Translations under genes and position numbers: made by a program
Source of the DNA: a virus
DNA length: 64,000 bases
IMG/VR virus record: IMGVR_UViG_3300031251_000002
Location: 1 to 64,000 of that record
Direction: 5' to 3' (one strand)
Notes under the pieces: generated by a model
The model's database searches: none
What the model was told of the DNA's origin: nothing
The model's input: only the letters and a program-made list of their open reading frames with translations
Shown: positions 14,673-63,027 of the stretch, piece after piece
Position numbering within the stretch: the stretch's first letter is position 1
Layout of the letters: each line of letters opens with the position of its first letter

Positions 14673-14943
14673 GGGTTCATTCACCTGTAACATATGCAAG
14701 ATTCTGGTCAAGCAAAGTGGCTTTGTACTGGGTGTCAAGGAAGCCTTTACGATAGCTCAGGCGGTCATGATCCGGATGTGCGAGCGCTGTTACCAGCAGA
14801 TAACCAATCACATGATTTACCTAGCCAAGACACTCCCCGAGACGGACAATAGTGTTTTGGAGTGGACCAATGCGGACGACACGGCTTTGTTGAAGAGCTT
14901 TGGAATATCCAATGACATCGGATCTCCTACAACTAAAGAGTAA
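14647..14943 (+). CDS. Zn-finger hypothetical protein
   Basis: CNIC...CERC. Confidence 0.55.
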   Translation: METPLKSNKGSFTCNICKILVKQSGFVLGVKEAFTIAQAVMIRMCERCYQQITNHMIYLAKTLPETDNSVLEWTNADDTALLKSFGISNDIGSPTTKE

Positions 14944-17038
14944 GGTCTCGACGGAGGCCCTGTACGGCGTCCGTCAGCTATACGACAGCCTGACTCCTCA
15001 TGAGAAGGAGCTTGCGATCAAGATCCTTGAGGATATGGATCGCAACAAGAACCCCCAGCTATACAAGACCCTCTGGGAGCTTGACTATGTGCGCCGTCCC
15101 GTCTCAGCCGAGGAGTTCATCAACAGCGAATACTATCTCGGTAAGATATGCCGGAACATCTATCCCCCATGGCGGCGGGATCTGGCCTACGTTCTCGATC
15201 CAAAGAACGAAATCTTTGAGTGGATCTGCACTGGCTCGATTGGTTCAGGGAAAACGAATTCATCCCTGATTGCACAGATGTACAAGCTGTACTTTCTGTC
15301 CTGTATCCGCAAGCCAGCCGAGTTCTTTGGGTTGATGGAGACCACACTGCTGGTGTTCATGTTCTTCTCGCTGACAGCCGAGAAGGCTGAGATGGCAGTC
15401 TCTGGCACGTTCAAGACGATGCTGGAGAAGTCCCCGTACTTCATTGACACCTTTCCCACCCGCAAGTCCAGCCGTCGAATGAAGATCGCTGGGGATAAGA
15501 CCTCCTCAGACCGTGAGTTGCTGTTCCCAAAGGGCATCGCGGTAATCACTGGTTCGCGTATGTCACACGCGCTGTCGTTCTCGGTCTTCTCAGCGGTACT
15601 CGATGAGGTGAACTTCCGCAGCAAGAAGACGATCACCGAAGATCAGGACATGGACAGCGCGGTTCAGGTCTACGAAGAAACCGCTTCGCGTATTCAGTCG
15701 CGTTTCATGGCCAAGGGTGTCATCCCCGGCATTCTCTGTACCGTGTCATCGAAGAAGTCCACGACAGACTTCATTGACCGCCACATCGAGAAGGTGCGCC
15801 ACAGCCCGAACGTCTACATCAGCGACTACAAAATCTGGGACGTTAAGCCAGACCGCATCTACTCCGGTAAGCGCTTCTTCATCAAGCTTGGTGGCAGTCC
15901 AAGCACCTCGTATGTGGTTGATAGCACCTCTGACGAGGATGCGTACTACCGTAAGTATTACGAGGAAGGCTCAGCCGTAGAGGGCAAGCCCAGTGACACG
16001 CTTCTGCCCAAGAGCGTCATGTCCGTGCCAGTGGAATACTACGATCAGTTCATCCGTGACTTCACAAAGAACCTACAGAACCTAGCGGGTGTAGCGACCG
16101 AGCCATTCGGCATGCTGTTCGACAATCCGATGATCCTCAAGAGCAGCTTTGAGACAGGCCGTGCTTCGCCATTCAATACCGATGTGCTGGAAGCTGGCGT
16201 CAAGGGCGGTCAGAAGATCAAGGACTCGTACAACTATCAGGCTGTGACAGTCTGGGATGGCCGGAACCGGATGCCTAAGTTCTATCCCCGTGCCATACGC
16301 TTCGCTCATATCGACTTAGCTAAAGGTGTACGCGACTCGGTTGGTATCTCGGTCGGCTGCATCTCCAAGCTGGTCTGGGTCGAGGTGGTCGATGTGGACG
16401 GATCGGTGGTTCGGGTGCCACGACCTGAGATATTCGTGGACTTCGTGATCAAGATTCGCGCTCCGCGTGGGGACGAGGTGTACTTCGACGAGATCCGTAA
16501 CTTCCTAGGCTGGCTACGTGACTCACTGAACTACAAGCTGGAACTGATCAGCTATGACCAATACAACAGCATTGACTCCCTCCAGCTACTCCAGAAGCAG
16601 AACTTTCAGACGCGCTACCTGTCCGTAGACCGGAATACCCGAGCGTACATGCTGCTCAAGGAGACGATTGTCGAGGATCGCTTGAAGTGCTACGACTACG
16701 CGCCTGTGTACGAGGAGCTACGTAATCTCATCTACGATCAGGTGAAGGACAAGGTTGACCATCCCCAGTTCACCAACCTTGGCTATCGCGGCTCCAAGGA
16801 CGTAGCGGACGCGCTGGCTGGGATGGTTAAGAACTGCCACGACGCACTGACGGACGCGAAGCTGCCCGGTACACGGACCCAGTTTGAGAAGCCGCTGGCA
16901 CCCACCTCGACATATCCGGGATCAACCGGCATTCAGCCGAAGGATGACTTCGCCGTGAACCGCCCAATCATCCGCCGCCCGTTTGAGCCTGAGATTACGC
17001 AGGTTTTTCCGACCACCCCATTCAAGGCCAAGATGTAA
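14912..17038 (+). CDS. terL: terminase large subunit
   Basis: Walker A GSIGSGKT, Walker B AVLDEV, RNase H-like HIDLA...DS, YDQYNS, KVDHP...GSKDVADALAG. Confidence 0.95.
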   Translation: MTSDLLQLKSKVSTEALYGVRQLYDSLTPHEKELAIKILEDMDRNKNPQLYKTLWELDYVRRPVSAEEFINSEYYLGKICRNIYPPWRRDLAYVLDPKNEIFEWICTGSIGSGKTNSSLIAQMYKLYFLSCIRKPAEFFGLMETTLLVFMFFSLTAEKAEMAVSGTFKTMLEKSPYFIDTFPTRKSSRRMKIAGDKTSSDRELLFPKGIAVITGSRMSHALSFSVFSAVLDEVNFRSKKTITEDQDMDSAVQVYEETASRIQSRFMAKGVIPGILCTVSSKKSTTDFIDRHIEKVRHSPNVYISDYKIWDVKPDRIYSGKRFFIKLGGSPSTSYVVDSTSDEDAYYRKYYEEGSAVEGKPSDTLLPKSVMSVPVEYYDQFIRDFTKNLQNLAGVATEPFGMLFDNPMILKSSFETGRASPFNTDVLEAGVKGGQKIKDSYNYQAVTVWDGRNRMPKFYPRAIRFAHIDLAKGVRDSVGISVGCISKLVWVEVVDVDGSVVRVPRPEIFVDFVIKIRAPRGDEVYFDEIRNFLGWLRDSLNYKLELISYDQYNSIDSLQLLQKQNFQTRYLSVDRNTRAYMLLKETIVEDRLKCYDYAPVYEELRNLIYDQVKDKVDHPQFTNLGYRGSKDVADALAGMVKNCHDALTDAKLPGTRTQFEKPLAPTSTYPGSTGIQPKDDFAVNRPIIRRPFEPEITQVFPTTPFKAKM

Positions 17039-17098: not shown

Positions 17099-19036
17099 AT
17101 GGCAGAAGATATCAAACTGAATATATTTCAGAAGGGTCTCCTAAAGCTCTTCAAGATGCGTCCGGAGGATCTCCCCGGTCATCGTGAAGGCGAGATGGAG
17201 ATGTCGTGGATTGAGTTCCTACGCTCAGGACTCGATCCATTTACCGGGTACGCGCAGATCAGTCAGGATCGAATCGTTCGCTACAACGATTACGATTTGA
17301 TGGACCAGTACAGCGATATTGCAACCGCGCTGGACATCTACGCTGAGGAGGCTTCACAGCCGGATCCCCGCAAGAAGCGGGTAGTCTGGGTGGACACTGA
17401 GAAGGCTGAGATCAAGGAAGAGGGCCGCAAGTGGCTGGCGATGATCAGCGCCGAGGACCGGGCATTCGCACTGGCGCGTAACGTGGCCAAGTACGGCGAT
17501 ACCTTTGAGTACAACCTGATGAACCAGAACGGTATCTACAACCTTCAGTTCATCCATCCGAGCCGCGTGAACCGTATCGAGTCAGACAAGCTGCTTGGTT
17601 ACCAGTGTGACGAGTTAGCGCGTCTCATGATGCGGACAGGCACACAGCAAGCCCCTGAGGGCCGCTTCTTCACGCCATGGGACTTCCTGCACTTCCGCAT
17701 CGAGGCATATGACCGAGAGACCATCTATGGTCGTAGCCTGATTGAGAACGTTCGCAAGACATGGAAAGAGCTTCAGATCCTTGAGACCATGATCGCTGTC
17801 TTCCGTGTTACCAAGAGCGTTCAGCGTAACGTCTTCATCGTAGACGTTTCCCAGTCCTCGCCACAGGAAGCACAGGGCATCCTTGAGAAGTGGCGGCAGC
17901 ACCTGCGTAAGCAGCAGTTCATTGATCCGGTGACTGGGGATTTCCGTGTTGATGCTCAGGCCATTACCCCGATGGAGGATCTCATCCTCCCCGTTCGTGG
18001 CGAAAACAACAAGACGCGAGTCGAGAAGCTCCAAGCGGATCCGGATATCGGCGCTATCGAGGATCTGCACTACTTCCGCGTCAAGCTCCGCACAGCGCTG
18101 GGTATCCCACAGAGCTACTTTGAACAGTCCTTGGAGAACACGGGCTGGAACAACAAGGAAGCGTTGGTCATGCAGGACCAGCGGTTCAGCCGCAAGATCA
18201 CGCGCATCCAGCGCTCCGTGAAGAGTGGGATGACCCGAGGGTTTGCTATCCACCTGACGCTCAAGGGAATCAAGTGGGAGCCGGGTGACTTCAAGATCGA
18301 GATGGCCCCGGTTAACCAGATCACCGAGCGCCTGAAGGAAGAGTGGTGGCTGCGTCGTGGTGAGCTATTGAATGCGCTGCTTCCAGTAGCCACGGTGGCC
18401 AATTTCGACCAGCAGGAGTGGAATGACCTGATCTGCAAGGAACTGCTCCCCCTTAGCCCGTCTGACCGGAAGAAGCTCCTGACCCCTCCACCCGAGCAGA
18501 TGGCCCAGCAAGCGGCTCTGGCGGGCGCAGGAGCGGCAAAGCCGGGTCAACCCGGAGCCAAGGGCGGTCAGTCTGGTGCGAAGGCTCCTAAGCCCGGTGC
18601 TGGGGGCAAGGTGGGTAAATTCTCAACCTTTGCCGAGCCGGATAAGGCCGAGGACACCATTTCGATGCTTTCGGACTTCTTCGCAGGACGCCCGGATATC
18701 CAGACTAGCGTTCGGTCCATCGTGGAAGGCATGGAGGAGCATCAGCTTTACGAGGTGACCAGCAAGGTCAAGGAGTTGACTGAGATCCGTGAGCTTATGG
18801 CCGAGGAGAAGCAGGTGCTTGAGTCCGATCTGGCTGACCTCAAGGGTGGTCTCAAAGAATCCGACATCAAGGCCATGAAGTCCTTCGCCGCTCCGGAGTT
18901 CAACAAGTTCCCGGTCTCCGTCTTCATGGGCGATAAGCAGATGAGCATCAACGAGAAGGTTGCCAAGCTGGAGAAGCGTGGGACCAACGAAGCGGTAATC
19001 AAGATGGACTATAAGCGGATTGACAGAAAGAGGTAA
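17099..19036 (+). CDS. portal protein, T4 gp20-like
   Basis: RYNDYDLMDQYSDIATALDIYAEEA, RNVAKYGD, RNVFIVDV, EDLILPVR, IEDLHYF...ALGIP; follows terL. Confidence 0.92.
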   Translation: MAEDIKLNIFQKGLLKLFKMRPEDLPGHREGEMEMSWIEFLRSGLDPFTGYAQISQDRIVRYNDYDLMDQYSDIATALDIYAEEASQPDPRKKRVVWVDTEKAEIKEEGRKWLAMISAEDRAFALARNVAKYGDTFEYNLMNQNGIYNLQFIHPSRVNRIESDKLLGYQCDELARLMMRTGTQQAPEGRFFTPWDFLHFRIEAYDRETIYGRSLIENVRKTWKELQILETMIAVFRVTKSVQRNVFIVDVSQSSPQEAQGILEKWRQHLRKQQFIDPVTGDFRVDAQAITPMEDLILPVRGENNKTRVEKLQADPDIGAIEDLHYFRVKLRTALGIPQSYFEQSLENTGWNNKEALVMQDQRFSRKITRIQRSVKSGMTRGFAIHLTLKGIKWEPGDFKIEMAPVNQITERLKEEWWLRRGELLNALLPVATVANFDQQEWNDLICKELLPLSPSDRKKLLTPPPEQMAQQAALAGAGAAKPGQPGAKGGQSGAKAPKPGAGGKVGKFSTFAEPDKAEDTISMLSDFFAGRPDIQTSVRSIVEGMEEHQLYEVTSKVKELTEIRELMAEEKQVLESDLADLKGGLKESDIKAMKSFAAPEFNKFPVSVFMGDKQMSINEKVAKLEKRGTNEAVIKMDYKRIDRKR

Positions 19037-35610: not shown

Positions 35611-36795
35611 ATGCCGATTAAGCGTACGCTACAGTCGCGGGTGCCAGTCAAGATTTGGACTGAGGATGTGGCAAGCAACGCCATGGATCAGTTGAAGAAC
35701 ACGGCATCTCTGCCCTTCGTCTACCACCACGTAGCGGCCATGCCGGATGTCCACCTTGGCATTGGTGCTACGGTTGGCAGCGTCGTGGCTACGGTGGGTG
35801 CGGTAATGCCCGCCAGCGTTGGTGTGGATATCGGCTGCGGCATGATGTGGATCGAGACCGGATTGGACATCGGTGTTCTCGACGGCAAGCTGCCTGAGCT
35901 TCGCCACAGCATCGAGCGCGGCGTCCCGGTGGGCTTCAACTCCCACAAGGAGCCGAAGATCGCTGCCCAGATTTTCGGGAAGAATTTTGGTCGTCCGATT
36001 GAGGGGGCTGACGACGATGAGCTTATGGGAAAGAGCCTTTGTCAACTGGGTAGCTTGGGCGGCGGGAATCACTTCATCGAGGTGTGCGTCAATCTCGACA
36101 CGAACAAACTCTCAGTCATGCTCCACAGCGGATCACGCAATGTGGGAAAGACTGTGGCCGAACGGTACATCAACAAGGCCAAGCTCCACCACCTCATTAA
36201 ACTGCCCGACCCTGAACTGGCGTACTTTGCCGCCGGGACTGACGAGTTTGCTAACTATGTGAATGACGTTCAGTGGTGTCAGATGTACGCCATGCTGAAC
36301 CGGCAGATCATGATGGACGAGGTGCTGAAGGATCTCGCCCACTTGCTGGGGGTGGATCGGTACAACGCCCACGCGAGTCTGGGTGTTACTCAGAGCGTCA
36401 ACTGCCACCACAACTACATCGCTGAAGAGATTCATTTTGGACAGAAGGTTTTCGTAACTCGTAAGGGAGCGATCAATGCCGAGAAGGGAACGTGGGGAAT
36501 CATTCCGGGAAGTATGGGCACCGGTAGCTTCATCGTTAAGGGCCTTGGGAATCCGGAAAGCTTTAACTCTGCTCCCCACGGTGCTGGTCGTCGTATGTCT
36601 CGCGGTGAGGCAAAGCGGACGTTCACCGTCGCAGACCTTGAAGCTCAGACGAGTGGCGTAGAGTGTCGTAAGGATGCTGATGTTCTCGATGAGGCCCCGG
36701 CAGCATACAAGGATATCGGTGAGGTAATCACTAACTCGTCTGACTTGGTGACCGTCGAGGCACGGATCAAGCAGGTTCTTTGCGTCAAGGGGTAG
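35611..36795 (+). CDS. rtcB: RtcB family RNA ligase
   Basis: MPDVHLG, VGVDIGCG, GGGNHFIE, HSGSR, CHHNY, RKGA, IPGSMG, SAPHGAGR, DEAPAAYK. Confidence 0.97.
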   Translation: MPIKRTLQSRVPVKIWTEDVASNAMDQLKNTASLPFVYHHVAAMPDVHLGIGATVGSVVATVGAVMPASVGVDIGCGMMWIETGLDIGVLDGKLPELRHSIERGVPVGFNSHKEPKIAAQIFGKNFGRPIEGADDDELMGKSLCQLGSLGGGNHFIEVCVNLDTNKLSVMLHSGSRNVGKTVAERYINKAKLHHLIKLPDPELAYFAAGTDEFANYVNDVQWCQMYAMLNRQIMMDEVLKDLAHLLGVDRYNAHASLGVTQSVNCHHNYIAEEIHFGQKVFVTRKGAINAEKGTWGIIPGSMGTGSFIVKGLGNPESFNSAPHGAGRRMSRGEAKRTFTVADLEAQTSGVECRKDADVLDEAPAAYKDIGEVITNSSDLVTVEARIKQVLCVKG

Positions 36796-54864: not shown

Positions 54865-54976
54865 TCTTTTTGGTTTTACTGGCGATCATGGCTGTAGTTC
54901 TCTTCTTTACAGAAGCAGACGATGAACCTTGACACAGTAAACACCGGTCTCTAAAATCGCATCAATCTCGGGTACG

Positions 54977-55029
54977 GGGCGGGAAGTGGGGCTTAGTCCT
55001 TTCGACCACTTCCCGCCCTTTTCTTTTTC
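54977..55029 (+). terminator. intrinsic terminator
   Basis: 13-bp stem GGGCGGGAAGTGG/CCACTTCCCGCCC followed by a T-tract. Confidence 0.8.
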
Positions 55030-55244
55030 TCCTAAAAACATAAGCTGTCGTCTCTGTTAACCCCTTAGAAGTTGATTCTTCTACAGGTGGCGTAACTGTT
55101 CAAAATTGACTGGACGCGCTTAGTAGGCTTGATCGTCACATGGTTCCCCATCTTTCTGGCCATGTGGTATCTCGTTAGTCTCCCACCTGACTGAGAAATC
55201 AACCTATTTGCCGGTTTTCAAGCCTTCGCTGGGATTGTTCAAAC

Positions 55245-58200
55245 ATGAGTAGAGAGAACCTTCGCGGTGTCATCAGCGGTCTGCCGAAGACCCTCATTGA
55301 CACGCCTGTTACCCCAGACGCCCAACCCCTGATGGAAGTCAAACCATCTGACTTCAAGCCTTGCGCTCGCTGCAACGGTACGGGTAAGGTAGACGGCAAG
55401 CAGTGTGTTCTCTGTCAGGCCAAGGGGACGATGCTCCACCGGCCTGTTCCCGAGTCGAAGTCCATTCTCTCTGAGGTCTGTCAGGCATGCGGTGGTCACG
55501 GCGCACAGGGGCTGAAGACCTGTGTAATCTGTCAGGGCGAGCCATTCATGGTTAACTTCACGAACGAAGCTGTGGATCCTCTCTGCTCATGTCGGCATCC
55601 ATTTAGTAAGCATACGAGCCGTCCCGGTGATATCGCTGGTCACGCGGGCGCATGTACTAGCAATCCAACCATCCCACCGAAGCCCGGATTTGGGTGTCGC
55701 TGTCAATACTTTTCCTTGAAGCCGAACGAGCCTGATCCTTGGACTATCGAGAAACAGTTCCATGAAGCAGTTCTTCCTCATAAATATGATGTTAGCTGCC
55801 AGTGCGGTTGGTCGTGTGTTGGAAAGCACAGCGTTCTTAGTGATGCGACCGAGTGTGCCTATCATCATGAGGGATCAGGATCAGGCCACAACTGTGAGAT
55901 TGAAGATAAGGGCACGGGTCTGACCTTCAACTCTATGGGCAGCATCACTGATTACTACGAGTCCGCCGAACCTCCCGATACGCAGCCTGAGTTGACCTGT
56001 AAGAAGTGCGATAAGCGCTTTTCTCCCGATGACGCGGAGTGGAAAGCAGCCCAGCGCGGCGACCCCTTCGTTTGTGCCGAGTGCAAGGCCAAGAAGAAGA
56101 CGAACGAAGCTGTGAATGAGATGGCTGATGCTATCAAGGCCAAGATCAAGGCGCAGCTTCAGGGCAAATACCCTGATGATGTTCTCAAGAAGGCTTTAGC
56201 TAGGACAGAGCGCTGGCAAAAGGCCGCATACGGCAGCAAGGACTGGTCAAGTCATCAGGATGAGTCAGGCTACGACAACCTCGTTGGGACTGTAGAACTG
56301 TACGCTGATGAGATTACCAAAGAGCAGGCTGGCAAGACGGGTCCAACTGCTAACCAGAGCCAGTTTGGTATCTGGTCGCCTAACGTTAGAAACCGCAAGG
56401 GTGAAGCTGAGGGTACGAGCTACAAGGGCTTCTGGCTTGACCAAGACAGTTCAAATCCGCACACAGGCTATCCCGGTGGGATGTGGTACGCGCTGACCAA
56501 GAGTGGCGTACCTGTTACAGACGGTGCTCCGTCCATCGAAGCTCTCAAGAAAGAGATCGACAAGATTGTGGCTCATGGCGCGGATGCGAACCGTTGCCCG
56601 TGTTGCGAGACTGTCGAGAAAGTCCTGTACGGCGTGAAGAACGGCGACGAGGACTGGCAGGAGCAGCTTCTTCTCAGTGGTCCCAACGCGACAGACGCGA
56701 ACATCGAGAAGGTCAAACAGCTAGCGGCCAAGGACGGCTTTGGGAAGTTTCGCGTTGCTTCGATTGACCTGAGCAAGCCGCCCGACTTTACCAAGGCTCT
56801 GCGGAAGAACGAGGCTGATGACCATTGTCGTGTCCGTGGGACCGACGGTGAGACACGGATCTGCGGCGAGAGGAAGCCCTGTCCCCTTCACGACGACGAA
56901 GGCCGGAAGGGCGAAGCCAACTCCTATCGCCACCCCAAGACCGGCCAGTTCGACGCCAAGGAAGGCGACTGCTGGGCGTGTGAGGGATCAGGGACGAAGG
57001 AAGACGGACAGGGCCGCTGCGCGATGTGCGATGGTGGCAAGAAGCTCCCCAACCAAGGTAACAACCTGAAGCGAAACGAGGGGCGGGACTACTCAGCAAA
57101 GGTTACTGGCCCGAGCGCAGTTGCTTTGAAGCGTCTTGCGACAGAAGCCGCGAAGCACCAACTCACATCCGAGCAGCAGGGTGCGGTGAACATGGTTCAG
57201 CGGGATACAGTTTCTATCCTCGCACGGCCCAAGCTCGCTCTAGAGATTAAGATGGTGTTGGATTTCGCTATCCTGCATCAGCCATTGAAGCAGGGCGAAT
57301 CTGACGACCGTTGTGGTTACTGCGGTCACACGCCGGTTGCTCACGATCCGAAGATGAGTCTCGGTTCTGGCCTCTGCACGGGTGGCCTTGGCTGCGACTG
57401 CCGTCAGTTCCAAAAGGGCAGTGCGTGGGTCGAAGCGACCGGTACGGCCATGGTCGCGGGCGCGGAGCCACAGGCTGATGTGGCCTTCAAGGGCGACGAT
57501 CTAAAGGGCGATAGCGATTACGGAGACCGCGACGAGGATTGGTCGATTACCAACACGACCGATCTTCCGCGAAACGAGGGCACAGTGGACGATCTACCAG
57601 TTAACATCAAGCGCATGTGGAAGAACGATGAGTTCCATTGTCCAATCTGTGACCTGAGCATTGGCAAGAACCTGCTGGGTGACATACCTCACGCCCTAGC
57701 GGCTCAGCACCTGTCACAAGCCCACCCCGGCGACAAGGCGTCCATCCTAGCGGGCAACTTTGAGCCAAAGATGGGATCTGCGGCCTCGTACATCAAAATG
57801 GAAGCTGAGGACAAGAAGATCGTTTTCAAGTGTCAGGAGTGCGGCAAGAAGCTCCCCGGTACGGCCCGCAAATGCTCCAAGTGCGGCTCTGAGGACATTG
57901 ATCTAGCTGAAGCCTACATGGACAACACCAAATGCGAGACTTGTGACCACGCCTCACGGTTGCACAACGAAGGCGAAGGCCGCTGCTTTGCCGAAGTGAA
58001 CGATGAGGGCGGTGGGACTGATTGCCGATGCAAGAAGTTCGTTCGCGGTAAGAACGAGGCTGGAGACTACTGCCCGAAGTGCGACCACGCGATGAAGGAT
58101 CATTCGGCCAATGGTTGCGAAGTCTGTGCGGATCACGGGGAGAAGTGCAACGTAGTTGATGAGGCCAACACTTGGTTGATGGCCCGCTCCTCGTCCCAGC

Positions 58201-59807
58201 CGAAGCTGGCCGAGCCGACCTTTACCCACGCGGACGCTATCGAGGCGTGGCAGAACTTCCGCATGCCCGCTGATATTGAGCGCCGCAAGCAGCTACAGAA
58301 GTTCTGGCTCCAGCAGCATCAGGACTTCTCCGTGGGCGGTAGTCAGTTCAACGACCCGGATGCTGAGGCACATCGTTACTACTACAAGCTGTTACTTCAG
58401 ACGTTGGGCGTCAAGGTAGCTGAAGAGGTTACACGTTGGACTGAAACTACGTCCGGCTCGGTGCATAGACCCGGCATTGACACCTATACTGGTTATAGCG
58501 AAATGAACGAAGCCATGCAGTGCTTCTGCGGCCACTCCAAGACGGCGCATGAGGATGGCGTAGGCAAGTGTAGCAGCAGCGGGAACACCTCTGCGGGTGC
58601 GTGTCTCTGCAAGAGCTACAGGAATCGTCCTGTCAAGGAAGCCTTCCCCAACGACGGCCCCGGTGAGGACATGGGCACAGACATGCCTGAGATGGGCGAC
58701 GACGAGTGGACACGCAACGTGATTACTGGCGACGGCACCGGCTCGACAGTCGGCGTCGAGGATAAGAATGAGGCCGAAGAGCTTCGATGGAAGGCTGGAG
58801 ATATCGTGATAATTCGTTCGCATAACAGCGAACCGGGTCACGGTCTTTCCTATTCGGCTGCTGCCATCGTTGCTTTCGAGGATGGCGTTGCTGGCGGATG
58901 GGATGTGTACGATGGAGCGAGCTTGGATGCGCCGACTTTGGAAACGAGCTTCTACGGCTTCAGCGTACTCCGTGTAAGGCGGGGGACGGCGGGGAAGAAT
59001 GAGGCCGAAGAGGTTACTTCTCCTCTCAACACCTATCTCGCTGTTCACAGCAAGAAGGGCAAGATCCAACTCAAGGCTGCGACGACCTATCAAGCTCAGC
59101 AGCTAGCTGCCAAGCAGATGGGTGTCCCTAAGCCGTTTGAGATTTCGATCCACCTGATTGGCAAAGCAGACGGTACACCCGTTCCCGTCCATGTCGAAAG
59201 CACTAATACTACGCCCTATGTTAAGCCGTTACAGGCTTTCTCCTATCGCGTAGGTCAGAAGTACGACTCCGCATACAACTCAAAGCTGGCACAGGCAGTC
59301 GGTCGGATCGTGGTTCCGGCCAGCCATATCTTTGAACCTGATAGCGTGGCGGATGCGAACGACTGCGATCTCTACACGACGATGATCGCCTTGCGGCTGA
59401 AGGAGCTTGGTTACTTACTGCTAAGCCCACAGGACAAGGCGGAGTGGGAGACTCTTTCAACGAAATTCATGCAGGACGTTCAGGCATACGCTGGACACTA
59501 CGATAAGCATGAGTCAATCGCGCCAGACGATGGGACGCGCATCTCGTCTGACTGGGGCGACATCTGGGGCGACCCGACCAAGAGCGGGATTACTCCTCGC
59601 CATGAGACGGCTGAGGCGGTCCTCGCGTCGATCTCCCTGCTCCAGTCTGCTTTTGTAGAGGGTGTTGAGACACTAACCATGTGCCACAACTGCGGTCATG
59701 CGGAGCATTTCCACCTCCTTGGAGCAGCCCTTGGCGCACAAGGGTTTGCTGATAATTCAACAGCTTGTTACGTAGATGGCTGCACTTGCGGGATGTTTAC
59801 AGCATGA
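55245..59807 (+). CDS. 1520-aa multi-module Zn-finger protein, probable protease-processed internal head polyprotein
   Basis: About 20 short modules separated by xNE|A-type linkers. Confidence 0.8.
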   Translation: MSRENLRGVISGLPKTLIDTPVTPDAQPLMEVKPSDFKPCARCNGTGKVDGKQCVLCQAKGTMLHRPVPESKSILSEVCQACGGHGAQGLKTCVICQGEPFMVNFTNEAVDPLCSCRHPFSKHTSRPGDIAGHAGACTSNPTIPPKPGFGCRCQYFSLKPNEPDPWTIEKQFHEAVLPHKYDVSCQCGWSCVGKHSVLSDATECAYHHEGSGSGHNCEIEDKGTGLTFNSMGSITDYYESAEPPDTQPELTCKKCDKRFSPDDAEWKAAQRGDPFVCAECKAKKKTNEAVNEMADAIKAKIKAQLQGKYPDDVLKKALARTERWQKAAYGSKDWSSHQDESGYDNLVGTVELYADEITKEQAGKTGPTANQSQFGIWSPNVRNRKGEAEGTSYKGFWLDQDSSNPHTGYPGGMWYALTKSGVPVTDGAPSIEALKKEIDKIVAHGADANRCPCCETVEKVLYGVKNGDEDWQEQLLLSGPNATDANIEKVKQLAAKDGFGKFRVASIDLSKPPDFTKALRKNEADDHCRVRGTDGETRICGERKPCPLHDDEGRKGEANSYRHPKTGQFDAKEGDCWACEGSGTKEDGQGRCAMCDGGKKLPNQGNNLKRNEGRDYSAKVTGPSAVALKRLATEAAKHQLTSEQQGAVNMVQRDTVSILARPKLALEIKMVLDFAILHQPLKQGESDDRCGYCGHTPVAHDPKMSLGSGLCTGGLGCDCRQFQKGSAWVEATGTAMVAGAEPQADVAFKGDDLKGDSDYGDRDEDWSITNTTDLPRNEGTVDDLPVNIKRMWKNDEFHCPICDLSIGKNLLGDIPHALAAQHLSQAHPGDKASILAGNFEPKMGSAASYIKMEAEDKKIVFKCQECGKKLPGTARKCSKCGSEDIDLAEAYMDNTKCETCDHASRLHNEGEGRCFAEVNDEGGGTDCRCKKFVRGKNEAGDYCPKCDHAMKDHSANGCEVCADHGEKCNVVDEANTWLMARSSSQPKLAEPTFTHADAIEAWQNFRMPADIERRKQLQKFWLQQHQDFSVGGSQFNDPDAEAHRYYYKLLLQTLGVKVAEEVTRWTETTSGSVHRPGIDTYTGYSEMNEAMQCFCGHSKTAHEDGVGKCSSSGNTSAGACLCKSYRNRPVKEAFPNDGPGEDMGTDMPEMGDDEWTRNVITGDGTGSTVGVEDKNEAEELRWKAGDIVIIRSHNSEPGHGLSYSAAAIVAFEDGVAGGWDVYDGASLDAPTLETSFYGFSVLRVRRGTAGKNEAEEVTSPLNTYLAVHSKKGKIQLKAATTYQAQQLAAKQMGVPKPFEISIHLIGKADGTPVPVHVESTNTTPYVKPLQAFSYRVGQKYDSAYNSKLAQAVGRIVVPASHIFEPDSVADANDCDLYTTMIALRLKELGYLLLSPQDKAEWETLSTKFMQDVQAYAGHYDKHESIAPDDGTRISSDWGDIWGDPTKSGITPRHETAEAVLASISLLQSAFVEGVETLTMCHNCGHAEHFHLLGAALGAQGFADNSTACYVDGCTCGMFTA

Positions 59808-61930
59808 AGCTGGTGGAAGCATTTTTCGTAGGGACCAAGCCCGATGGATCCAAGGAAGTTTTCCAAGGCTCCCGGAACCCGACGACAGAAACGCATCCCC
59901 GGTTTAAGTCCATCGCTGGCCCGTTCAGCGAAGAAGAGGCTAAGAAAATGGCTGGCGACGAAAAGAAAGAAGCCCTCAAGCGAGAACTGATGGGAGAGCT
60001 TTCAGATGGTTACGTATCCTGTACCAAGTGTGGTGTGGTTCCCGAGAAAAGCTGTCCGCACAGTGCGCCCTTTAAGAGCGTGACAAAAAAGAACGAGTCC
60101 TCTGGCGTAGTGATCACCGCGCCCGGTGCTGGTGACACTCCTGAGACTCTCCTGAAGGCGATCCCGCGCACGATGGATGCTTCTGCGTTCATCAGCCACA
60201 TCGGTGATCTCGTCGTTGCTGGCAAGGGTGCTGCGCCGACTGACATGAAGTTGACTGGCGAGCCAATTACTCCGAGCGACGTTACCATGATGGCTCAGTG
60301 CAAGATTGGCGAAGCTGAGAATGTCTTTGACAAACATGCACTGAAGATTGCTAAAGACACCCTGAAGATTGCTAAAGACACCCTGAAGATGCATCCAGCG
60401 GTGGTAGGCGTCATGGGCGGCACCACGCACGAAGGTGCCCATCAGACTATCAAGCGCATCACTGGCAAAGACCAGTCCTGCACCCAAGACGGCTGTCCTT
60501 ACAAGCAGACCGGGAAGACCGAATCCCGCGAACTGCGCGAAGGCTCCAGCATCTGCAACTGTGGGGACTCTGAGAACGACCACTACAAGGATCCGCCGTC
60601 TTCTTGCAGCCGCTGTGCTTGCGACTCGTTTGAGTCCAACAGCCTCCCGGATAAGGCGAAGGCTCCTGCTGCAAAGGACAAACCAGTGGACAAGAAGGAA
60701 TCCCTCAAGCGCGAGCTTTTGGGTGAGGATAACTTTGTAACATGCGTTGGGTGCGGCAAAGAAACTCTGTCGCGTGACGCTGCTAATCTTAATGACCGTG
60801 GAAAGTGGGCGAGTCCGCCAGAGGGAAAGCCACATTGCCGGTCTTGCGATATGTATGGGCCACCTGACAATGGTGGTAAGTCGTCTCCCGGTGTCGCTGG
60901 TTATACGAGCCGGGAAGCCGGGTCGGGACCGGCTAAAAAGAATGAGTCGGATGCCTACGACCGCGATTTCACCTGCAAGATGTGCGGTAAGACTGACGAC
61001 GGCCCGGAGTTCGTAGTTGCTGGCAAGCACCCGGTTTGCAAGGCATGCAAAGAGAAGAAGGATCCAGACAAGCCGATTAAGCTGCGCGGGGAATCCACAA
61101 GTAACGATAAAAACTGCCAAGCGTGTGGTGCTTCCGGTGCGTCCCCAAGGGATAGAGGCAACGGTCGAGTTCTCAACCTCTGCTCAACCTGCACTTCTAA
61201 GAAGGCCGAAGGCGCGGTCTTTGCATCCAATGCTAGCCTACATAAGAAGTACCCCGGTCCTGCGGCTGACGCTCAGTCTGACAAAGCTCGAAAGTCCGTA
61301 CCGAACACAGTTTGCAATTTCTGCACTAACCCGGTGACGCCACCGGCAACCGTTTGTGACACTTGCTATGACAAGTTCAACAAGAAGAAGGAATCTAAGG
61401 AGAAACCTATGAAGACCAAGCCAGTTGGCGAGCAGTTTCATGCTCTGGCCAACGCTGCCATCAAGATGATGGTTAGCATTCAGGAGTCCCCGCGAGCGGG
61501 GCGGGTGACCCCGCTACTGGCGCGGTTGGACAAGGTAGCGAACAAGGCAGCGGATGCTGTCGCCGCGAAGATGATGGGGGAGAACCAAGGTTACGAGTTC
61601 CCCGCGCTCTTCAAGGAGTTGAAGGAGATCCACGCCAAGCTCAGGACCGCAATGGGCGAAGGCTGGCACATGTATCCGGCTCTCGGGCTGGGCAATGACT
61701 TCAACATGGGTGGCGATGGTCGCGAGATGTCGCCAGAGCTTTCTGGTGTTGATCCGGTCGAGGGCATGGTTGCTGCGGCAGTCCCGCTCGACGCTGGTGC
61801 CAACAAGATGGAGAACGTTAACAAGTACGTTGACAGTCTCCTGAAGGAAGACGATGACGAGAAGTGCGATACCTGTGGTGGTGTTGACAAGCACGACAGG
61901 AACAAGCACGACGCGGATTTCAAAGGCTAA
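59804..61930 (+). CDS. 708-aa multi-module Zn-finger protein with the same architecture
   Basis: Linkers KKE|A, KNE|S, RGE|S; repeated KKE(A/S)LKREL(M/L)GE; ATGA-coupled to the previous gene. Confidence 0.8.
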   Translation: MKLVEAFFVGTKPDGSKEVFQGSRNPTTETHPRFKSIAGPFSEEEAKKMAGDEKKEALKRELMGELSDGYVSCTKCGVVPEKSCPHSAPFKSVTKKNESSGVVITAPGAGDTPETLLKAIPRTMDASAFISHIGDLVVAGKGAAPTDMKLTGEPITPSDVTMMAQCKIGEAENVFDKHALKIAKDTLKIAKDTLKMHPAVVGVMGGTTHEGAHQTIKRITGKDQSCTQDGCPYKQTGKTESRELREGSSICNCGDSENDHYKDPPSSCSRCACDSFESNSLPDKAKAPAAKDKPVDKKESLKRELLGEDNFVTCVGCGKETLSRDAANLNDRGKWASPPEGKPHCRSCDMYGPPDNGGKSSPGVAGYTSREAGSGPAKKNESDAYDRDFTCKMCGKTDDGPEFVVAGKHPVCKACKEKKDPDKPIKLRGESTSNDKNCQACGASGASPRDRGNGRVLNLCSTCTSKKAEGAVFASNASLHKKYPGPAADAQSDKARKSVPNTVCNFCTNPVTPPATVCDTCYDKFNKKKESKEKPMKTKPVGEQFHALANAAIKMMVSIQESPRAGRVTPLLARLDKVANKAADAVAAKMMGENQGYEFPALFKELKEIHAKLRTAMGEGWHMYPALGLGNDFNMGGDGREMSPELSGVDPVEGMVAAAVPLDAGANKMENVNKYVDSLLKEDDDEKCDTCGGVDKHDRNKHDADFKG
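60341..60390 (+). repeat. 21-bp in-frame tandem duplication (LKIAKDT x2)
   Basis: CTGAAGATTGCTAAAGACACC twice plus a partial third copy. Confidence 0.9.
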
Positions 61931-61950: not shown

Positions 61951-62382
61951 ATGATTGCTGTTAGAAAGATGCTCATCGCTACTGCGCTAGCTCTCGCTAG
62001 TGTCGTGGCATGCAAGAAGGCGGCAGCACCAGCCCCGGCTGTTGTTCCCGCCCCGGTCGTATCGGTAGCCCCGAGCGTACCGACTGTCCCGGTCCCACCG
62101 GCTACCCAGCCACCTGTCAAGCAGGTTTGCAAGCCGGGTGAGTCCATCGGTGTCGGCGCGGGCGCGGGCAAGTTCGTGTGCAAGGTTTGCAATTCCGATG
62201 GTACGGCGTGGGGCGCTCCCGGTCCATGCCCGGTAGGCTCACCGGCCCCGGCTCCGAAGCCAACCATCAAGCCTGTCTGCAAAGAAGGCGACAAGACGGG
62301 CGGCGTAGGCGGTCCGAACGGTCAGATCATGTGCAACGTGTGCAAGGGCGGGCAGTGGGTACAGGATCTCGGTTGTAAGTAA
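61951..62382 (+). CDS. Pro/Cys-rich predicted lipoprotein
   Basis: Lipobox-like VVAC; two CKxG...CxVC...W repeats; AGGAGGAG RBS. Confidence 0.78.
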   Translation: MIAVRKMLIATALALASVVACKKAAAPAPAVVPAPVVSVAPSVPTVPVPPATQPPVKQVCKPGESIGVGAGAGKFVCKVCNSDGTAWGAPGPCPVGSPAPAPKPTIKPVCKEGDKTGGVGGPNGQIMCNVCKGGQWVQDLGCK

Positions 62383-62675: not shown

Positions 62676-62972
62676 ATGGCAACAGTTCTAACTGACTCAC
62701 AGAAGGTTACGGTCGGCCCGGTTTCGGCAGTTGACGCGAAGGGCAACGCGGCTCCGCTCGGCGGCGCTCTCGTTTTCTCGGCGTCGAATGCCAACGTTAC
62801 CCTAGCCCCGTCTGCCGATGGTCTCTCCTGCGATGTCATCGCGGGTTCGACCCTAGGCGACGTTCAGCTATCGGTTACGGACGGCGTTCTCACCGGCACG
62901 GCGGATTTCACCGTCATCGCTGGTGCTGAGGCGTCCCTGTCCCTCCCGGTCGGCGCTCCGGTAGCCCAGTAA
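62676..62972 (+). CDS. small Ig-like beta-sandwich protein
   Basis: AAGGAG RBS; VDAKGN.......FS.S...V.....DG.S. Confidence 0.72.
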   Translation: MATVLTDSQKVTVGPVSAVDAKGNAAPLGGALVFSASNANVTLAPSADGLSCDVIAGSTLGDVQLSVTDGVLTGTADFTVIAGAEASLSLPVGAPVAQ

Positions 62973-62991: not shown

Positions 62992-63027
62992 GGCCCGCCT
63001 GCTCAATTGGGGCGGGCGGGCCTTTTT
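62992..63027 (+). terminator. intrinsic terminator
   Basis: GGCCCGCC...GGCGGGCC followed by TTTTT. Confidence 0.8.

Follow-up and report, generated by a model that had tools for sequence, protein, structure and literature searches.

Two string-of-beads open reading frames of an uncultured phage of the T4 assembly lineage as candidate cargo polyproteins for its prohead protease

Two adjacent open reading frames (ORFs) of an uncultured phage, IMG/VR record IMGVR_UViG_3300031251_000002 (166,450 bp, rated complete by CheckV), appear to be strings of small proteins joined end to end at borders made of a Glu followed by a small residue. We call them ORF A and ORF B; they lie in the first 64 kb of the record, hereafter the window, and positions are those of the window unless marked as genome positions. 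The reading of A and B as concatenations of independent mini-proteins, with the Glu-small joints as true module borders, is strongly supported by sequence comparison, because modules have free-standing homologs in other phages, the overhangs of the predicted fragments match those of these homologs, and homology breakpoints fall on the joints. We propose, as an on-balance probable reading, that A and B are cargo polyproteins, cut in the capsid by the S77 protease of the phage, and that the pieces are delivered to the host. The parts of this proposal differ in strength: the bead architecture and the cassette-like evolution have good support, and so does the reality of the joints; the S77 protease would provide the best available mechanism of cutting; packaging into the prohead and ejection are purely what we infer; and delivery into the host is suggested by analogy only.

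Results

Both ORFs are found where the preliminary description of this DNA had placed them, with lengths of 1,520 and 708 amino acids (aa), and all of the linkers listed there are present in the two translations (Table 1). Over the 27 proposed borders, the P1 Glu is invariant and is followed at P1' by Ala, Ser, or Gly in 26 cases and by Thr in the remaining one. Counted over A and B together, the linker pattern [KRTQ][NG]E|[ASG] has 14 occurrences, versus 1.1 ± 1.0 in composition-preserving shuffles (0 of 2,000 reach 14), so that the linkers are more frequent than composition predicts, a point on which the preliminary description had made its proposal depend; the exact P value of this enrichment is optimistic because the motif was defined after viewing the sequence, and the effect is large. 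Outside A and B, the ~49,000 residues that make up the remaining proteome contain this pattern just 14 times, a density ~22 times lower.

The free-standing relatives of the modules give the joints their meaning as borders. A HMMER scan of 1.84 billion proteins with residues 321 to 1520 of A (A321-1520) returned 157 matches, nearly all of them proteins of 60 to 100 aa that cover one module end to end, and at least seven modules have free-standing relatives of 50 to 200 aa in other phages. The module A456-523 ("family 1," alignment A3) has dozens of free-standing homologs of 60 to 90 aa, and the module A1177-1253 ("family 2," alignment A4) has free-standing homologs of 62 to 80 aa. The finger A779-840 has P0125 and P0141 as free-standing homologs, and the ribbon A841-889 has P0090 and P0077; A1254-1313 matches the C terminus of P0146, and A240-288 matches the N terminus of P0158, a 193-aa phage protein (49% identity, E 8e-19). 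These genes, including that of P0158, sit in tight arrays of small phage genes. If A were cut at the joints, the family 1 fragment would carry N- and C-terminal overhangs of 4 and 8 residues versus medians of 4.5 and 7 in the free-standing proteins, and the family 2 fragment overhangs of 8 and 12 versus medians of 8 and 8. Pfam and PHROG searches with eight free-standing homologs gave no useful family, and a search of a protein atlas gave only unnamed viral clusters.

Comparison with the two relatives of the whole ORFs argues that modules move as units bounded by the joints. P0003 (1,414 aa) has eight blocks in common with A, at 45 to 80% identity and amounting to ~44% of A, while the other 56% of A is without counterpart in this closest relative. 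Both termini are collinear, two modules are swapped, and one is placed close to the N terminus and not at position 929. P0008 (559 aa) is a B-type protein that matches B over its C-terminal 180 residues (70% identity). Moreover, A1318-1356 matches residues 62 to 98 of P0008, both beginning with Glu-Ser-Thr, so that a module carried by A in this phage belongs to the B-type gene in the relative. Module B382-430 has as its homolog a stand-alone 56-aa gene that immediately follows P0008 (L008:1985-2152; 49% identity, E 2e-12). Against the two relatives, 6 of the 10 BLAST blocks begin exactly on E[ASGT] in both proteins, for a chance of 0.03 per position (binomial P ~1e-7); breakpoints of homologs thus fall on the linkers, as would be expected from the preliminary description. 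These alignments support well that modules change place inside a gene, pass from one of the two genes to the other, and switch between a fused and a free state. Neither megablast nor tblastn against 50,697 phage records, nor pattern scans in which A, B, and alignments of two conserved modules were run on IMG/VR and Joint Genome Institute (JGI) metagenomes, gave relatives of A or B. At its locus (L008:302-1981), P0008 has the first five residues of ORF A at its own N terminus and the C-terminal domain of ORF B at its other end, and the preceding gene shows no relation to A; a single chimeric polyprotein gene may thus occupy this place in the relative. An InPase domain encoded near P0008 was not found in the present phage.

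At the joints, it is the peptide that is kept. The Asn, Glu, Ala, and Lys codons differ synonymously among the 27 proposed joints, and the signal therefore lies in the peptide and not in the DNA. We also weighed the linkers as nucleic acid signals, i.e., as Shine-Dalgarno sites or relics for internal initiation, or as recombination sites, for which their purine-rich codons and the two linker pairs with 17 to 20 nucleotides (nt) in common could speak. However, the linker Glu codon is GAA in 15 of 27 joints, whereas the genome prefers GAG, the Asn and Ala codons vary, most linkers are without DNA identity, and no in-frame start codon lies at a usable distance after the linkers. This reading is largely refuted, and we give it hardly any credence; internal initiation at the linkers was rejected, the codon variation and the lack of suitable start codons downstream ruling it out. 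The 18-nt identity between two linkers pointed out in the preliminary description is real (Table 1); the copies bracket the SH3-like module of family 2 and form family D2, in which 20 of 21 nt are identical. The accompanying idea that linker microhomology drives the exchange of cassettes fared less well. Two linker pairs only, with their 17 to 20 nt in common, speak for it, while the synonymous codon differences elsewhere weaken microhomology as the mover of modules; the idea is weakly supported, and selection for intact modules accounts for the breakpoints equally well.

Many of the modules look like small zinc-binding domains. Cys makes up 4.2% of A and 4.1% of B versus 1.4% of the remaining proteome, with 28 CxxC and 11 CxC motifs in the two ORFs, and cutting A at the joints would give fragments of 3.5 to 14 kDa. 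A zinc module of the form C-x(1,2)-C-x-H-x4-H...C...C-x-C is present in seven copies, each beginning 3 to 6 residues past a linker, in line with the earlier remark that a new Cys-rich module often opens shortly after a linker. Its profile found no additional copy in the rest of the genome and, in the PDB, only a weak likeness to the bL32 zinc knuckle. Neither A nor B contains a Pfam or PHROG family above threshold; the Pfam matches to zinc-ribbon, HypA, and DnaJ-CR families are all below it, the region A779-889 matches Zn_Ribbon_1 weakly and below the cutoff, and the likeness of A34-108 to the DnaJ central Cys-rich domain (PF00684, 18.7 bits versus a cutoff of 32.7) is a resemblance only. Structure prediction of modules, which the preliminary description had suggested, yielded two that fold confidently alone, with a lower predicted local distance difference test (pLDDT) score at the linkers. 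The family 1 module reached a mean AlphaFold2 pLDDT of 87.6, dropping at the linker, and a fold search against the PDB gave no significant match. The family 2 module, which is missing from P0003, reached 90.4, with ~51 in its last residues, which span the downstream linker; its top PDB matches in Foldseek are all SH3 domains, with probabilities of 0.9 to 1.0 and weak statistics (E ≥ 0.04, template modeling score of 0.42 to 0.60), and the predicted model looks like an SH3-type barrel. Within ORF B, positions 60327 to 60389 hold three tandem 21-nt units that encode a repeated seven-residue peptide.

That A and B serve as disposable filler of the head core or inner body, chopped and then expelled or left inert, seems quite improbable to us. 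The proteins gp22, gp67, and gp68 of the T4 core are indeed cut into short fragments (PMC5694885), and A contains acidic spacers that would suit such a role (e.g., A731-778 and A1133-1176, isoelectric point of 4.1). Yet the modules are predicted to be folded and zinc binding, many phages without such a polyprotein conserve them as proteins on their own, and their fast turnover is more reminiscent of an arms-race repertoire than of a structural core.

The phage encodes a protease of the kind that the cargo reading calls for. The preliminary description had pointed to a prohead protease gene as something to be found, and we located it as the first part of a 654-aa fusion protein: its first ~200 residues form an S77 (T4 gp21) protease (PF03420, 87.5 bits, E 7e-26, genome 71934-72449; PHROG 207 also matches), followed by a very acidic, scaffold-like tail of ~440 residues. 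In T4, protease and scaffold are encoded by separate genes, whereas in this phage they form one fused protein. Alignment to T4 gp21 (5JBL) shows that the His (DHP) and Ser (SSRG) motifs are retained. S77 is the only one found of the five protease families searched in the genome, those not found being Trypsin_2, HK97-type S78, ClpP, and MPTase (PF18818). All characterized gp21-type proteases cut after Glu (PMC5694885, PMC10052503). When a position matrix derived from the 27 linkers was scanned over the proteome outside A and B, the scaffold tail held 5 of the 16 best linker-like sites, versus 0.75 expected from shuffling of the tail (P ~0.001), a density ~33 times that found in the remaining proteome. 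Such proteases classically act on the scaffold, and these sites therefore provide an independent, although indirect, link between the linkers and the protease. A complex prediction of the protease domain with a linker-SH3-linker segment scored 0.00 ("no answer") and was used neither way.

The portal could be a further substrate. As the preliminary description had noted, the phage has a T4-type portal with VLE|S, LKE|S, and TNE|A in its tail; the last, Thr-Asn-Glu|Ala-Val, lies 15 residues from the end, and apart from this copy, the five-residue string around it is found at only two places in the proteome, both in A. The extension that bears these three Glu-small sites (18440 to 19036) runs ~200 residues past the family profile and contains a low-complexity stretch rich in Ala, Gly, Pro, and Lys. 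This suggests that the portal tail may also be trimmed.

The same module can be found under another linker. Family 1 modules also occur within long proteins of other uncultured phages in which an equally repetitive [YF]x[KD]GG linker takes the place of the Glu motif, with 10 to 11 copies per protein versus ~3.7 expected; among the bead-string genes of this type in Table 1, one encodes a family 1 module. A phage of this linker type is represented by JGI contig Ga0642624_01481. On one JGI contig, two adjacent proteins of 1,305 and 749 aa, arranged like the A-B pair, carry 11 such linkers each versus ~3.7 expected. The occurrence of one module in two unrelated linker schemes fits linkers that are processing signals and not parts of the modules, and would fit schemes set by the protease of each phage.

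A and B appear to be expressed as one unit. The ATG of B overlaps the TGA stop of A as ATGA, by which B is presumably translationally coupled to A, and a strong intrinsic terminator closes a unit made of A, B, and two small downstream ORFs. The first of these (61951 to 62382, 143 aa) has a lipoprotein-type signal, in which a hydrophobic leader is followed by a Cys, as well as a spacer rich in Pro and Ala and two Cys-rich repeats in its interior; the second (62676 to 62972, 98 aa) resembles an immunoglobulin-like domain. At 54929 to 55030, the 380-nt gap before A contains a near-consensus sigma-70-like site, TTGACA-17-TAAAAT, and, ~20 nt past it, a long hairpin, rich in GC and followed by a T run, that resembles a terminator; such a promoter-like site is no commoner than expected by chance. 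The N-terminal leader of A, conserved solely in its ortholog P0003, is a candidate targeting sequence or propeptide, a role that is only inferred because no protein elsewhere in the genome has an N terminus similar to that of A or B. The C-terminal domain of B, likewise conserved, could serve as a carrier or an anchor.

Cutting of A and B in the cytoplasm by a host protease or an unrecognized phage Glu-specific protease, without packaging, would make the fusion a means for equal coexpression of host takeover proteins. This would suit the free-standing homologs in small-gene arrays typical of phage early regions, the empty search for targeting sequences, and the promoter-like site upstream of A. 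However, that site is at chance level with a terminator-like hairpin directly after it, no other protease family was found among those searched in the genome, the scaffold is enriched in linker-like sites, and the S77 protease of T4-type phages acts inside the prohead (PMC5694885), so that we regard cytoplasmic cutting as improbable.

The phage itself belongs, as a distant relative, to the T4 assembly lineage. Its genome encodes a terminase, a gp20-type portal, and a gp23-type capsid protein with 29 to 39% identity to homologs in several Bacillus, Listeria, Rhodothermus, and Maribacter phages. Pfam and PHROG searches with the ten neighboring proteins of A and B gave no useful family. Elsewhere in the window, a gene for an RtcB-type RNA ligase is present at 35611 to 36795 (PHROG 1075, E 7e-133).

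Table 1. Positions of ORFs A and B, of their modules and joints, and of the other features discussed
Feature	Position	Strand	Remarks
ORF A (P0001)	55245-59807	+	1,520-aa predicted polyprotein, ~22 to 24 modules
ORF B (P0007)	59804-61930	+	708 aa from ATG, predicted polyprotein, ~8 to 10 modules
N-terminal leader of A, residues 1 to 31	55245-55337	+	Ends in Leu-Met-Glu; conserved in homolog P0003
P1 Glu codon starts, A joints 1 to 11	55335, 55566, 55959, 56106, 56403, 56607, 56811, 56913, 57078, 57297, 57432
P1 Glu codon starts, A joints 12 to 21	57576, 57909, 58056, 58161, 58509, 58638, 58770, 59001, 59196, 59511
P1 Glu codon starts, 7 proposed B joints	59969, 60095, 60521, 60698, 60944, 61091, 61391
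Zinc module copy 1	55569-55730	+	CxxC-x-H...H...C...CxC
Zinc module copies 2 to 7	57297-57437, 57918-58064, 58053-58178, 58506-58643, 59667-59807, 60539-60658
Module A240-288	55962-56108	+	CxxC...CxxC zinc ribbon
Module A456-523 (family 1)	56610-56813	+	Small beta-beta-alpha-beta domain between Glu455 and RKNE linker
Modules A779-840 and A841-889	57579-57911	+	CxxC...HxxxxxH finger and zinc ribbon; end in Leu-Ala-Glu
Module A1177-1253 (family 2)	58773-59003	+	SH3-like beta-barrel between two KNE|A linkers
Modules A1254-1318 and A1319-1423	59004-59513	+
Module B382-430	60947-61093	+	CxxC...CxxC zinc ribbon
C-terminal domain of B, residues 531 to 708	61394-61930	+	Sole part in common with B in P0008, by 70% identity
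18-nt linker DNA, copy 1	58764-58781	+	Identical to 58995-59012
18-nt linker DNA, copy 2	58995-59012	+	Second copy
Intrinsic terminator	62992-63022	+	13-bp stem with 11 GC pairs, then T run
Terminase	14900-17038
T4-type (gp20-type) portal	17099-19036	+	C-terminal extension bearing Glu-small sites
Prohead protease-scaffold fusion, 654 aa	Genome 71925-73889 (L002:11925-13889)		Directly before capsid gene
gp23-type capsid protein	Genome 73905-75314
[YF]x[KD]GG bead-string genes in other phages	L014:5358-9275, L014:10001-12250, L013:1578-3851

Discussion

We propose that each ORF is translated as one chain of beads on a string, together ~30 independently folding mini-proteins of 3.5 to 19 kDa, more than half of them predicted to bind zinc, with module borders at the Glu-small joints. 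The borders would then be cut after the Glu by the T4 gp21-type (S77) prohead protease, a step with the scaffold sites as its one independent line of support. The chains would enter the prohead core, perhaps by means of the N-terminal leader of A and the C-terminal domain of B, and would be cut there; the mini-proteins could then accompany the DNA and take effect soon after entry into the host, as T4 IPI* does. As the pieces would act separately, their order would be free, and a module could be added or dropped, could change from A to B or back, or could exist as a gene of its own, which is the pattern that the relatives display.

Several observations weigh against this model. For gp21-type proteases, the published motif is L/I-x-E in T4 and A/S/G-x-E in phiKZ and SPN3US (PMC10052503), and Lys/Arg at P3, present in 16 of the 27 proposed linkers, fits neither of them; Leu or Val is found at P3 in few linkers and Ala, Ser, or Gly rarely. 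The maturation site of the capsid protein, mapped on T4 gp23 at around residue 42, has candidates of the L-x-E type (Leu-Asp-Glu|Ser and Leu-Leu-Glu|Val), and hence a single protease would need to accept both contexts. Some Glu-small dipeptides sit within modules, so that the rule alone overpredicts sites. A search of the proteome for an N-terminal capsid-targeting peptide common to other proteins found nothing. A and B lie 10 to 16 kb from the protease and capsid genes, among neighbors of unassigned function. Finally, only two relatives were found among 5.8 billion proteins, both on short contigs; the ENA samples with these relatives are ERZ1426817, ERZ18622979, and ERZ27313044. The assignment of the linkers to the prohead protease, as made in the preliminary description, is supported only indirectly, by the presence of an S77 protease and the enrichment of linker-like sites in its scaffold, while the P3 Lys/Arg departs from the published rules.

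The same departure (PMC10052503) could be read as a sign that A and B remain uncleaved multidomain chains, e.g., a multivalent zinc finger scaffold or nucleic acid binder, whose joints are flexible hydrophilic linkers; linkers rich in Lys, Asn, Gly, and Glu are common in multidomain proteins. We consider this unlikely, although it deserves attention. The invariant P1 Glu and small P1' residue are tighter than linker composition demands, modules occur as whole separate proteins with the same ends, and the same type of site is enriched in the scaffold of the protease itself. Moreover, the order of modules is not conserved, and with 56% of A unmatched in the closest relative, a cooperative machine is hard to reconcile with these data.

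If A and B are cut and packaged as cargo, a single 6.7-kb operon would preload the virion with ~30 small proteins, compared to three to four in T4. This would explain the quick turnover of early-acting factors, each linker-bounded module being a self-contained cassette, and would make an early action, codelivered with the DNA, likely for several widespread phage families of 60 to 80 aa with unassigned function. The repeated protease-type linker would also provide a sequence rule for spotting such cargo in metagenomes and a natural design for packing many small proteins into T4-type capsids. Beyond this phage, we tentatively raise the possibility, doubtful as it still is, that tailed phages have a general and undescribed mode of protein delivery by "cargo polyproteins," i.e., small libraries of antihost or antidefense proteins fused in one or two frames, with linkers tuned to their own maturation protease (Glu-small in S77 phages, [YF]x[KD]GG in another lineage) and with modules that can be shuffled, moved, or released without loss of function. 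A full-text literature search gave no paper on phage polyproteins, the nearest concepts being T4 internal proteins (PMC3012670) and polyvalent proteins (PMC5512222).

The closest known system is that of the T4 internal proteins IPI, IPII, IPIII, and Alt, which carry a capsid targeting sequence, are processed by gp21, and are ejected with the DNA; IPI* is an injected protein of 76 residues (PMC3012670). The protease (gp21 family), portal (gp20 type), and capsid protein (gp23 type) of the present phage are of the same kinds, each proposed cut falls between a Glu and a small residue, the products of 4 to 14 kDa would resemble IPI* in size, and the repertoire is highly variable. In contrast, T4 cargo is encoded by one gene each, with its own 10-residue targeting peptide and an L/I-x-E site, whereas here ~30 cargo units would be held in two reading frames, with Lys/Arg at P3 and no common targeting peptide found. 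A and B have no sequence similarity to the T4 internal proteins.

The polyvalent proteins of phages and conjugative elements described by Iyer, Burroughs, Anand, de Souza, and Aravind in 2017 (PMC5512222) are also long, multimodular, and mosaic, occur in portal-terminase phages, and are proposed to be packaged, delivered, and processed into units. They combine 2 to 15 mostly enzymatic domains with a built-in zincin-like MPTase proposed for processing, whereas A and B have no enzyme domain or MPTase recognizable by Pfam or PHROG, consist of tiny zinc fingers and small folds, and have joints whose recurrent Glu motif hints at the head protease. In phiKZ, 201phi2-1, and SPN3US (gp175/gp245), a related protease cuts one head protein at several Glu residues, and cargo is ejected (PMC10052503, PMC5694885). 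There, the motif is A/S/G-x-E, mainly N-terminal propeptides are removed and shredded, and the products are large, whereas the cuts proposed here would free a series of independent mini-proteins and P3 is rarely Ala, Ser, or Gly. Homology to the inner-body or ejection families of phiKZ and SPN3US was not seen when A was compared by tblastn with the 50,697 phage records.

Many products from one frame are otherwise familiar from the polyproteins of eukaryotic viruses, e.g., pp220 and pp62 of African swine fever virus, which are cut at Gly-Gly-X. To our knowledge, multijoint polyproteins of this kind are undescribed for tailed phages. A and B would differ from the African swine fever virus type in virus realm and proteases and would be alike in the essential device of a short repeated protease motif at each joint.

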